UHGV virus genome: UHGV-1351408 | From: a virus | Length of the DNA stretch: 64,000 nucleotides | Reading direction: 5' to 3' (one strand) | Shown here: one piece after another, positions 38,386 through 40,206 of the stretch | Layout: each line of letters begins with the position of its first letter | Position numbering within the stretch: position 1 is the stretch's first letter | Position numbers and translations under genes: made by a program | The notes under the pieces: model-generated | What the model saw: only the letters and a program-made list of their open reading frames with translations | Database searches by the model: none | What the model was told of the DNA's origin: nothing

Positions 38386-38441
38386 TTGACATAGAAAATT
38401 TGGTGAGTATACTGAGCAGCATAAACCGACGGGTACTCACC
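38386..38441 (+). promoter_or_regulatory. Sigma70-like promoter plus stem-loop
   Basis: TTGACA (38386-38391), 16-nt spacer, TATACT (38408-38413); an 8-bp stem GGTGAGTA/TACTCACC (38402-38441) spans the -10 and the predicted start. Confidence 0.5.
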
Positions 38442-38443
38442 AG

Positions 38444-38712
38444 CATCACTTAAGAGTCTTTTAAAAGGGTTTTTAAGTGATGTCTGGTAAAGTATGGTTC
38501 TGTCCGGTAATGCGATGTATGCTATGGTTTGGTGTGGGTAGTTAGTCTCAGCTACATTAAAATGAGACTTACCTTTTTAAAAGGTCTTTAAGAGGGTCTT
38601 TTAATGAGGTGGGGTCTGGTTTGGTATGGTAATGCGAGGTATGGGTCAGGTGGGGTGAGGTGTAGTTAGGTCTGGTATGGGTGGATGGTAGTAGCCACAT
38701 TAAAAATCTACC
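38444..38712. repeat. Two tandem ~130-nt G/T-rich hairpin-bounded elements (units A and B)
   Basis: A 38444-38573: CATCACTTAA/TTAAGTGATG hairpin, C-poor GGTATGG-type run, terminal hairpin AGTCTCA/TGAGACT. B 38574-38712: CTTTTTAAAAGGTCTTTAAGAGGGTCTTTTAATGAGG head, G/T run, terminal hairpin GGTAG/CTACC. Paralogous to 39849-40114. Confidence 0.6.
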
Positions 38713-38788
38713 AAGTTTCTAAAGAGTCTTCTGTTGAGGGTTCTTTACAAACAACTTAACAATCAACTAAAGTGTGGAGCTAAATGCT

Positions 38789-39376
38789 ATGAAACTGTTA
38801 AATATCAAAATCACTGGTACTCGTCCTTTCCTGAGCCACGCTGATACACTGTCAGACCCATTAAACCCTCTGACAAAATATCACAAGTCTCTGTCCAGTA
38901 AACGTAAAAAGACCGACGAAGACTATGCGCTCTTAGCAGAAAGCCAACTGGTAACTTCTTGTTACTACGATGAGCAGCTAGGTTTTGTTATGAACGGTGA
39001 GATGATTGAGGCTTGCATCAAGTCTGGTGCGAAACTCAACAAACTTGGTAAGGTGATTGACCGAGCCATTATGCTGACAGATGTAGTCTTCCCAATGACT
39101 ATCAAGAACTGTCCAGCAAACCCACAAGAACTTGCTAAGAATCCAGACTTTATCTATGCTAAGTCTGTTAAGATTGGTACAGCACGAGTTATGAGCTACC
39201 GTCCAATCTTCCGCGACTGGTCTGTAGAGTTCGGTTTGATGTTCGATGAAGAGCAAATCACCAAAGAGGAACTCCTGATGGTTCTGGAAAATGCTGGTAA
39301 CCTTTGTGGTGTAGGTGATTGGCGTCCACGCTTTGGTCGTTTTTCTGTAGAAGTTATTTCAGAAGGTAATGTTTAA
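38789..39376 (+). CDS. Hypothetical protein (196 aa), first gene of the repeat-flanked cassette
   Basis: ATG at 38789 (track ORF begins at a GTG, 38774); no motif recognised. Confidence 0.55.
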
Positions 39377-39378
39377 TT

Positions 39379-39819
39379 ATGAATACAAAAGCATTAGCAG
39401 CAAAGTTTAGTTACGGTGACACTGTATCACATTCTGAGATGGACACCTTCTTAGGTATTGTGAAGCCAACTTATCAAGGTGACATTGTTAAGTACGAAGA
39501 TGAAATGAAGGCTTATGCACTTACACGTCTAAACCGACTTGAGAAGTTTATTGAGAAACTTCTTAAAGAAGAGAAGATTTATCTGGTTGCTTCAATGGGT
39601 GTTGGTTATCGTGTGGTTGAACCTAAACATCAAGCAACTATTGCAAAACGTAAAATGTCTGGTAAGATTGGTCGTGCTTTAAAACAAGCCACTCAAGCAA
39701 TTGAGAATGTGAACACTATGGCACTTAGTCATCAAGAACGTTCACGACTGATTGAACAGCAAAACCATTTAGCTGCTATGAAAGCTAACATTAACAAGCA
39801 ACGTAGAAAACCTTTCTAA
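39379..39819 (+). CDS. Hypothetical protein (146 aa), second gene of the repeat-flanked cassette
   Basis: ATG 2 nt after the upstream stop; basic C-terminus (KQRRKPF); no motif recognised. Confidence 0.55.
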   Translation: MNTKALAAKFSYGDTVSHSEMDTFLGIVKPTYQGDIVKYEDEMKAYALTRLNRLEKFIEKLLKEEKIYLVASMGVGYRVVEPKHQATIAKRKMSGKIGRALKQATQAIENVNTMALSHQERSRLIEQQNHLAAMKANINKQRRKPF

Positions 39820-39828
39820 GTTGACTAG

Positions 39829-39855
39829 GTAGCCTCTTCGGAGGCTCCTTTTTAA
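39829..39855 (+). terminator. Intrinsic terminator
   Basis: AGCCUC-UUCG-GAGGCU hairpin followed by UUUUU. Confidence 0.65.
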
Positions 39856-40114
39856 AAGGTCTTTAAACAGGGTCTTTTAATGAGGTTTGTTATGGTCAGG
39901 TATGGTGTGGTGTTGTAAAGTTTGGTGCGGTCAGGTTAGGCTTGGTATGGGTAGTTAATCGAAACTACATAAAAATTCGATTACATCACTTAAGAGTCTT
40001 CTAAGAGGATTTTTAAGTGATGTCTAGTCAGGTATTGTCCGGTATGGCAAAGCATGGTTCGGTTCGGCAGGGCTTGGTATGGAAGGATGGTAGTAGCCTT
40101 ATAAAAAATCTGCC
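39849..40114. repeat. Two tandem ~130-nt G/T-rich hairpin-bounded elements (units B' and A')
   Basis: B' 39849-39982 shares the unit-B head and ends in hairpin AATCGAA/TTCGATT. A' 39983-40114 shares the ACATCACTTAA/TTAAGTGATGT hairpin and ends in hairpin GGTAG/CTGCC. Confidence 0.6.
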
Positions 40115-40133
40115 AAATAAGCTATAAAATCTG

Positions 40134-40162
40134 TTGACAAGTCAGGTGTTATAGCTTATTTT
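40134..40162 (+). promoter_or_regulatory. Putative sigma70-like promoter
   Basis: TTGACA (40134-40139), 17-nt spacer, TATTTT (40157-40162); upstream of the 40207 gene. Confidence 0.35.
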
Positions 40163-40206
40163 TATACTCAATGTAATACAAAATTTAATATAACTTTGAG
40201 GTCATT

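Follow-up and report, generated by a model that had tools for sequence, protein, structure and literature searches.

The window analysed here, a 64,000-nt stretch of UHGV virus genome UHGV-1351408, comes from a Felix O1-like myophage. Within its replication gene block (DNA polymerase, ligase), between the DNA ligase gene and the next early gene, two open reading frames (ORF1 and ORF2) are bracketed by four related repeat units, A and B on the left and B' and A' on the right. The original prediction, made from the sequence alone, had recognised these four units in direct orientation around the two ORFs. A profile hidden Markov model built from the units agrees, returning exactly four copies in the window (E 1e-32 to 2e-36). 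Because the two proteins are almost identical to Vipr and Vap1 of phage SUSP1, we assign the locus, with a probability of roughly 95%, to a type II VIPR (Viral Interference Programmable Repeat) system of the SUSP1 clade, in which the four units are vrRNA genes. The locus is laid out as follows.

End at 38379: DNA ligase gene, the left neighbour of the locus
38386..38413, + strand: P1, sigma70-like promoter TTGACA-16-TATACT, 11/12 consensus matches
~38444-38569, direct orientation: unit A
~38572-38713, direct orientation: unit B
38716..38773, + strand: head-like remnant TTTCTAAAGAGTCTTCTGTTGAGGGTTC running into a promoter-like site, TTTACA-18-TAAAGT, 5' of vipr (repeat families D7, D10)
38789..39376, + strand: ORF1 (vipr), 195 aa
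39379..39819, + strand: ORF2 (vap1), 146 aa
39831..39846, + strand: terminator-like GC hairpin 3' of vap1, with a T-run that overlaps the 5' arm of the next head
39847-39982, direct orientation: unit B'
39984-40115, direct orientation: unit A'
40115..40162, + strand: hairpin AAATAAGCTATAA...TTATAGCTTATTT with a T-run, enclosing the -35 box of P2 (inverted repeat I4)
40134-40162, + strand: P2, sigma70-like promoter TTGACA-17-TATTTT, 10/12 consensus matches

ORF1 shares 192 of 195 residues (98.5%) with Protein Data Bank entry 36pp chain D, "SUSP1 Vipr protein" (E 8.5e-129 in a sequence search of solved structures). It is thus more than 90% identical to SUSP1 Vipr, the level that defines membership of the SUSP1 clade (Methods of 10.64898/2026.04.26.720920). 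Eight of the nine residues that contact the GGY bases of the guide RNA are present (H17, E71, M72, R138, C173, D177, W178 and R179); position 175 is V in both ORF1 and the PDB chain versus T175 in the preprint (10.64898/2026.04.26.720927). ORF2 is identical to SUSP1 gp038, the gene directly 3' of vipr, at 145 of 146 residues (99%). Pfam, PHROGs, NCBIfam and PADLOC assigned no function to either ORF.

VIPR was made public in 2026, so the system itself is known and already explains what we find here. According to the two preprints, its components are Vipr, a small protein with a RAMP fold, and the vrRNAs, in which 9-16 YNNGG repeats lead into a conserved tail (10.64898/2026.04.26.720920, PMC13142463; 10.64898/2026.04.26.720927). 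In the SUSP1 clade, this tail is ~40 nt long and contains a pseudoknot (both preprints). The preprints describe Vipr as a helical filament with one protomer per repeat, in which cryo-electron microscopy finds the GGY bases buried and the two variable bases (NN) exposed (10.64898/2026.04.26.720927). Pairing to double-stranded DNA is through the NN bases and passes over every third base of the target; genes bound in this way are silenced (10.64898/2026.04.26.720920; 10.64898/2026.04.26.720927). Vap1, the VIPR accessory protein, is described as boosting protection; in SUSP1, ~100-nt vrRNAs are expressed in infection and co-purify with Vipr, and the targeted genes are repressed (10.64898/2026.04.26.720920). 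Most natural targets of the SUSP1 clade are stated to lie on a satellite phage found in E. coli genomes (10.64898/2026.04.26.720920; 10.64898/2026.04.26.720927).

We examined unit anatomy in 93 units (70 distinct) from 29 related loci. The collected units all lie at this single locus, with 1 to 6 per genome, and each unit of 130-145 nt has three parts: an 18-bp head hairpin, a tract of pentamers and a 3' H-type pseudoknot. The full head hairpin and the pseudoknot had not been noticed in the original prediction. In the window, the parts are placed as follows.

38444..38482, + strand: head hairpin of vrRNA A, 18-bp stem including G-U pairs
38482..38536, + strand: guide tract of vrRNA A, 11 pentamers, NN: CT AA AT TC CC AA GA AT AT TT GT
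38537..38569, + strand: tail pseudoknot of vrRNA A, S1 GTAG/CTAC, S2 AGTCTCA/TGAGACT, A-rich loop 3
38572..38609, + strand: head hairpin of vrRNA B, B-type sequence with the same stem geometry (folding, covariation)
38609..38679, + strand: guide tract of vrRNA B, 14 pentamers, 1-nt insertion after the 7th
38680..38713, + strand: tail pseudoknot of vrRNA B, S1 GTGG/CCAC, S2 TGGTAG/CTACCA
39847..39885, + strand: head hairpin of vrRNA B' (folding, covariation)
39885..39949, + strand: guide tract of vrRNA B', 13 pentamers
39950..39982, + strand: tail pseudoknot of vrRNA B', S1 GTAGTT/AACTAC, S2 AATCGAA/TTCGATT
39984..40022, + strand: head hairpin of vrRNA A' (folding, covariation)
40022..40081, + strand: guide tract of vrRNA A', 12 pentamers
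40082..40115, + strand: tail pseudoknot of vrRNA A', S1 AAGG/CCTT, S2 TGGTAG/CTGCCA, one G-U pair

The heads of A and A' share the hairpin CATCACTTAA...TTAAGTGATG, as originally described; the 11-bp stem given for it was too short, and pairing extends to 18 bp through G-U pairs. The shared head of B and B' likewise stands, at 37-38 nt, with the addition that it forms the same stem: A-type and B-type heads differ in sequence while the pairing is kept. Across 32 distinct heads, 94% of alignment cells are paired, with two-sided changes at five pairs. Four inner pairs are conserved G-U wobbles and the minus strand folds the outer 10 bp only, so the full 18-bp stem forms only in + sense RNA. The head hairpins may be 5' boundary or processing elements, maybe an RNase III-type site or a filament boundary; they do not appear in the accessible preprint account, in which the repeats and the 3' tail are described. 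Two relatives in IMG/VR (L008 4132-4286 and L010 4132-4285) carry a 22-nt insertion, AAATTATATTCGATAGAGTATC, at the apex of an A-type head, and the outer stem is intact.

The middles of the units are C-poor and G/T-rich (C 6-17%, G 35-47%, T 30-40%), as first noted, and the "heptamers" seen in them are really a strict register of G-Y-N-N-G pentamers, 11-14 per unit in the window. Of 68 related tracts, which range from 45 to 95 nt, 65 are an exact multiple of 5 nt; in these units, G and the pyrimidine hardly ever change, and both N positions are free to vary. The pentamer directly before the tail is always GTATG and takes no part in pairing.

Such composition could also suit a replication origin. 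G-rich, C-poor tracts behind a strong promoter would then form an R-loop, a T7-gp4-like primase would use the dense G-T-N sites, and the displaced strand would fold into two-tetrad G-quadruplexes. P1 is indeed strong, the non-template strand behind it contains 35-47% G and 6-17% C, the locus lies among replication genes, and GG every 5 nt would permit two-layer quadruplexes. We nevertheless give an origin next to no credence: it has no direct support, the GC skew tracks the direction of transcription and merely mirrors gene orientation, and neither a quadruplex nor a primase site depends on having a pyrimidine in position 3, on strict 5-nt phasing or on NN bases that spell satellite genes. Moreover, the GGY bases are buried in protein in the cryo-EM structure (10.64898/2026.04.26.720927). 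The quadruplex cluster suggested in the original prediction therefore needs no role, since VIPR, unlike quadruplex formation, explains why a pyrimidine is conserved behind GG and why NN matches targets.

Several other readings of these tracts were dropped once Vipr had been identified: a sponge for a TRAP-like ring protein, T7/T4-type primase sites with an R-loop origin, a RecA/Chi-like GT-rich recombination hot spot, a tRNA-CCA sponge and a Rho rut site on the minus-strand RNA. A packaging or terminus role was dropped since Felix O1-type records that open at rIIA place the locus tens of kb from the ends.

The 3' pseudoknots, whose third loop is A-rich, also covary. Two-sided compensatory changes occur at nine of 12 pairs among 17 distinct tails. 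Of all alignment cells, 91% are paired, compared with 25-43% when the pairing partners are slid by 1-3 columns. Tract and tail together predict mature RNAs of 88-105 nt, which agrees with the ~100 nt given in the preprints. Rfam at a permissive threshold gave best scores of 15-22 bits against gathering thresholds of 37.8-105, and a tRNA/tmRNA scan of the window found none. Taken together, the evidence indicates a structured + strand RNA that contains a repeat for protein binding. Two of the options first listed, a structured noncoding RNA family and a protein-binding array, were thus essentially right: the units are vrRNA genes whose repeats would be coated by a Vipr filament.

Tandem pseudoknotted repeats next to genes are also what a type III toxin-antitoxin-like array or decoy would look like, with the RNA neutralising an adjacent or host endoribonuclease. 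The order of promoter, tandem pseudoknotted repeats, terminator and genes fits, and repeat number differs among the relatives; it also varies in pseudo-ToxI expansions. ORF1, however, is Vipr and not a ToxN-, CptN- or TenpN-type nuclease, which excludes a ToxI-like antitoxin, and no PADLOC defence model hit any of the three neighbouring proteins below E = 0.01. Known type III antitoxin RNAs measure 34-45 nt, and the units here, at 130-145 nt, are longer. Since the NN code additionally matches DNA targets, we regard a toxin-antitoxin-like array as vanishingly improbable.

These DNA targets lie in E. coli. When complete E. coli genomes were searched with the region by BLAST, 135 chromosomes matched, always over the last repeats plus tail. 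The matches fall in islands of ~11 kb that carry serine recombinases together with baseplate and tape-measure genes; we refer to these islands as satellites. E. coli strains with such a satellite include APEC O18 and 2014EL-1345-2. We scanned 12 satellite loci (319 kb; 0.64 Mb counting both strands) with the NN code under the 1-nt-skip rule. Guide A has a perfect match (22/22) in a 236-aa gene of two satellites, L034 (8030-8061) and L041 (9142-9173). Guide B' matches a 184-aa satellite gene at 24/24 over its first 12 NN (L036 10375-10409), and at 23/24 in L030 and L040. Guide A' matches the same gene, given as 185 aa for these satellites, at 21/22 in L032, L033, L035 (10222-10253) and L039. 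By chance, ~4e-8 perfect 22-base matches are expected in the sequence scanned. Skips of 0, 2 or 3 gave background scores only, guides with shuffled NN order never exceeded an 83% match, and the skipped base is the third (wobble) codon position in all three targets. No self-target was found in the 64-kb window at 80% or more of NN, with best matches of 65-73%.

The resemblance to SUSP1 VIPR extends well beyond the proteins. Both loci lie between the ligase and the next early gene, with the same P1, heads, GGY/NN tracts, pseudoknot tails, cassette and terminal hairpin/promoter, and both target an E. coli satellite with a 1-nt skip on wobble positions. They differ in that the window has two upstream and two downstream units (SUSP1 has one and three), a different guide repertoire, and a guide B with a register-breaking 1-nt insertion; the window phage belongs to Felixounavirus and SUSP1 to Suspvirus.

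By near-identity to SUSP1, each unit would yield a mature vrRNA of ~100 nt composed of GGY-NN pentamers and the 3' pseudoknot tail. Vipr (ORF1) would coat the repeats, one protomer per pentamer, burying GGY and presenting NN; the NN bases would then pair with double-stranded DNA, skipping every third target base, and transcription of the target would be silenced, with Vap1 (ORF2) strengthening the effect. P1 would transcribe the upstream pair of vrRNAs, the downstream pair would be expressed by read-through from the cassette, and the 18-bp heads between vrRNAs would act as processing or boundary elements.

Several points weigh against this interpretation. That the four RNAs are made and loaded in this phage is argued from near-identity to SUSP1, and the VIPR literature behind the identification consists of preprints. 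The transcription route of the downstream vrRNAs is uncertain: a terminator-like hairpin separates them from vap1, and a promoter scan of the locus detected no promoter between that hairpin and these vrRNAs, which may rely on read-through. In vrRNA B, an extra G near 38644 splits the 14 repeats into two registers. A variable-gap scan of the 12 satellites with guide B gave a best score of 20/26, in a tape-measure gene, which needs an extra 3-nt gap (one skipped codon) and is not significant, as shuffled guides equalled it in seven of 300 trials; a search of IMG/VR for the exact IUPAC pattern of this guide, in two junction variants, also gave no target. As a separate observation, the vrRNA B sequence with its insertion also occurs in IMG/VR locus L016.

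The promoters flanking the array agree with the original prediction. P1 and the hairpin/P2 at 40115..40162 are each conserved in Felix O1, EC6, UAB_69 and SUSP1, and the stretch at 38716..38773 is identical in SUSP1. The right-hand hairpin and P2 look like a composite terminator/promoter that closes the array ahead of the gene at 40207-40590. The promoter scan found none inside the 130-145-nt units. A 9-bp inverted repeat, TGGTGAGTA ... TACTCACCA (38401-38442), surrounds the P1 -10 box and likely start site; since the left arm precedes the predicted start, the repeat would form only in DNA or in read-through RNA.

The satellites themselves suggest why a Felix O1-like phage would carry guides against them. 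Their baseplate and tape-measure proteins are 69% and 33% identical, respectively, to proteins of the window (52996-53760 (-) and 54369-56009 (-)). This fits a satellite that borrows or mimics tail parts of this phage and exploits this phage family. Because the islands share baseplate and tape-measure homologues with the phage, repression of a parasitic satellite during infection is the most likely role of the system. Targeted satellites include the following.

L032 8350-19100
L033 1655-13056
L034 3693-15028
L035 2418-12863
L036 3032-12865

Satellite contents include a large serine recombinase, the baseplate and tape-measure genes, a small resolvase-like gene and a ~2-kb noncoding stretch with a vrRNA. 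They occupy at least five chromosomal sites: the yecE/DUF72 gene, wrbA-ymdF, tonB-yciI, next to dinB, and mdtG. Each satellite has a single vrRNA, and none of the satellite proteins is similar to Vipr or Vap1. Tested against the window phage, the satellite guides gave no match above 81% of NN, which lies within the shuffled range (maximum 83%), and none at the 90% of true targets. One widespread satellite guide (L030 14973-15037 and L042 11973-12037) matches, at 20/20 to 22/24, E. coli sites, including those listed below, which from the consensus are probably the repetitive extragenic palindromic (REP) element. If this is so, that guide would have hundreds of chromosomal sites.

L038 15313-15347
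L042 16559-16593
L036 17439-17473

The region is similar to 231 phage records (80-99% identity), nearly all of them Felixounavirus and relatives. The same stretch in phage wV8 is annotated with two "hypothetical protein" genes and a "DR_4" repeat feature, and the genome papers of Felix O1, wV8 and UAB_Phi87 give other repeats or only "DR_4", without interpretation. Array layouts vary among relatives (1, 2, 2+1, 2+2, 2+3, 3+2 or 1+3 units). The mirrored A-B/B'-A' order of the window was thus correctly described and is not a structural rule. All 231 records have units, but a close Vipr is encoded in just 118 and the cassette occupies this locus in 117, which leaves about half of the family (~113 records) with vrRNAs and no vipr. 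As predicted from the repeats, presence or absence of the cassette falls exactly at unit boundaries.

This polymorphism is an argument for treating the units as promoter-early stem-loops (PeSLs), small motifs dispersed across the genomes of T4-like phages in which a terminator and a promoter are combined (PMC4122927). In a PeSL, the stem-loop sits inside a sigma70 promoter or shortly before it, and a Shine-Dalgarno sequence and start codon come next. As such modules, the units would be repeated regulatory sequences that mainly mediate, by homologous recombination, gain, loss and exchange of the two-gene cassette, which is present in about half of the relatives and always bounded exactly at units; unit number varies from 1 to 6, and the right boundary is a composite hairpin/promoter. 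Like PeSLs (PMC2839356, PMC4122927), the array is intergenic, beside a variable gene cassette, and tied to insertions and deletions between close relatives. A sigma70 promoter and stem-loop occur together only at its right end (40115-40162), however, and of the PeSL analogy first drawn for the units, only this boundary (40115-40161) has the right form: size, copy distribution and content all disagree. PeSLs are short and dispersed over many intergenic sites (PMC4122927), whereas the units are 130-145 nt long, confined to one locus, contain covarying RNA structures and encode target specificity in variable positions that match external target genes perfectly; we read them as candidate transcribed guides. 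Recombination accounts for the polymorphism but not for the GGY register or the covarying structures, and PeSL-like modules are in our judgement a highly improbable explanation of the locus. Under VIPR, the cassette polymorphism is best seen as a by-product of the direct repeats.

The arrays without a cassette, which we call orphan arrays, keep the pentamer register intact. Examples are as follows.

Felix O1, L002 2503-2634: one unit, no cassette
EC6, L003 2503-2625: one unit, no cassette
UAB_69, L004 2503-2762: two units, no cassette
SP116, L043/L044 (record positions 59325-59605): two units

The complete SP116 genome contains no Vipr or Vap1 homologue, and in the whole genomes of KhF3 and SP116 the units occur at this locus only. 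A satellite match at 90% or more of NN was obtained for five of the 12 distinct orphan guides and for none of 55 shuffled guides. Tentatively, orphan arrays could be used in trans, either with Vipr supplied by a relative infecting the same cell or as decoys that titrate the Vipr of a competitor; we consider this possible rather than probable. If they are, the vipr-vap1 cassette would be a module often lost and regained via the long direct repeats. The accessible parts of the VIPR preprints contain no mention of orphan vrRNA arrays, and because the SUSP1 clade is defined there by the Vipr protein, genomes without vipr would fall outside it (10.64898/2026.04.26.720920). We also observed a Vipr 100% identical to that of the window in GU169904.1, "Staphylococcus phage SA1" (91679-92263), and two "Campylobacter" records among the phage matches to the region; these look like mislabelled or chimeric Felix O1-like records.

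There is a parallel in clustered regularly interspaced short palindromic repeat (CRISPR) systems, where guide arrays persist as orphans in genomes without cas genes. The vipr-less relatives similarly retain guide arrays without an effector gene, while the window itself has the complete system. As described in the preprints, VIPR also resembles class 1 CRISPR-Cas (Cas7-family) in having a RAMP-fold protein filament on a guide RNA with a fixed nucleotide period, a thumb that flips bases out each period, and a variable guide capped by a constant structured handle. It differs in that VIPR is phage-borne, lacks a repeat-spacer array and adaptation genes, has a 5-nt period with two informative bases per protomer and one target base skipped, and represses without cleavage. 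Indeed, the region contains no CRISPR-type repeats; a repeat search gives the four long units and their pentamers. That VIPR is older than CRISPR is a proposal of the preprint authors (10.64898/2026.04.26.720920; 10.64898/2026.04.26.720927).

VIPR is a newly described way for RNA to read DNA, in which a gapped dinucleotide code is carried on a pentamer scaffold. The window is a clean natural example, with a full two-gene cassette and four guides, three of which have identifiable satellite targets. For genome scans, the lesson is that a strict G-G-Y-N-N register beside a ~195-aa unannotated gene identifies a VIPR locus, whose guides are then directly decodable. Beyond the known system, the value of this locus lies in the orphan arrays, the satellite guide with its presumed REP matches and the conserved head hairpin. 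For the Felix O1-like phages, the locus fits phage-against-satellite warfare.

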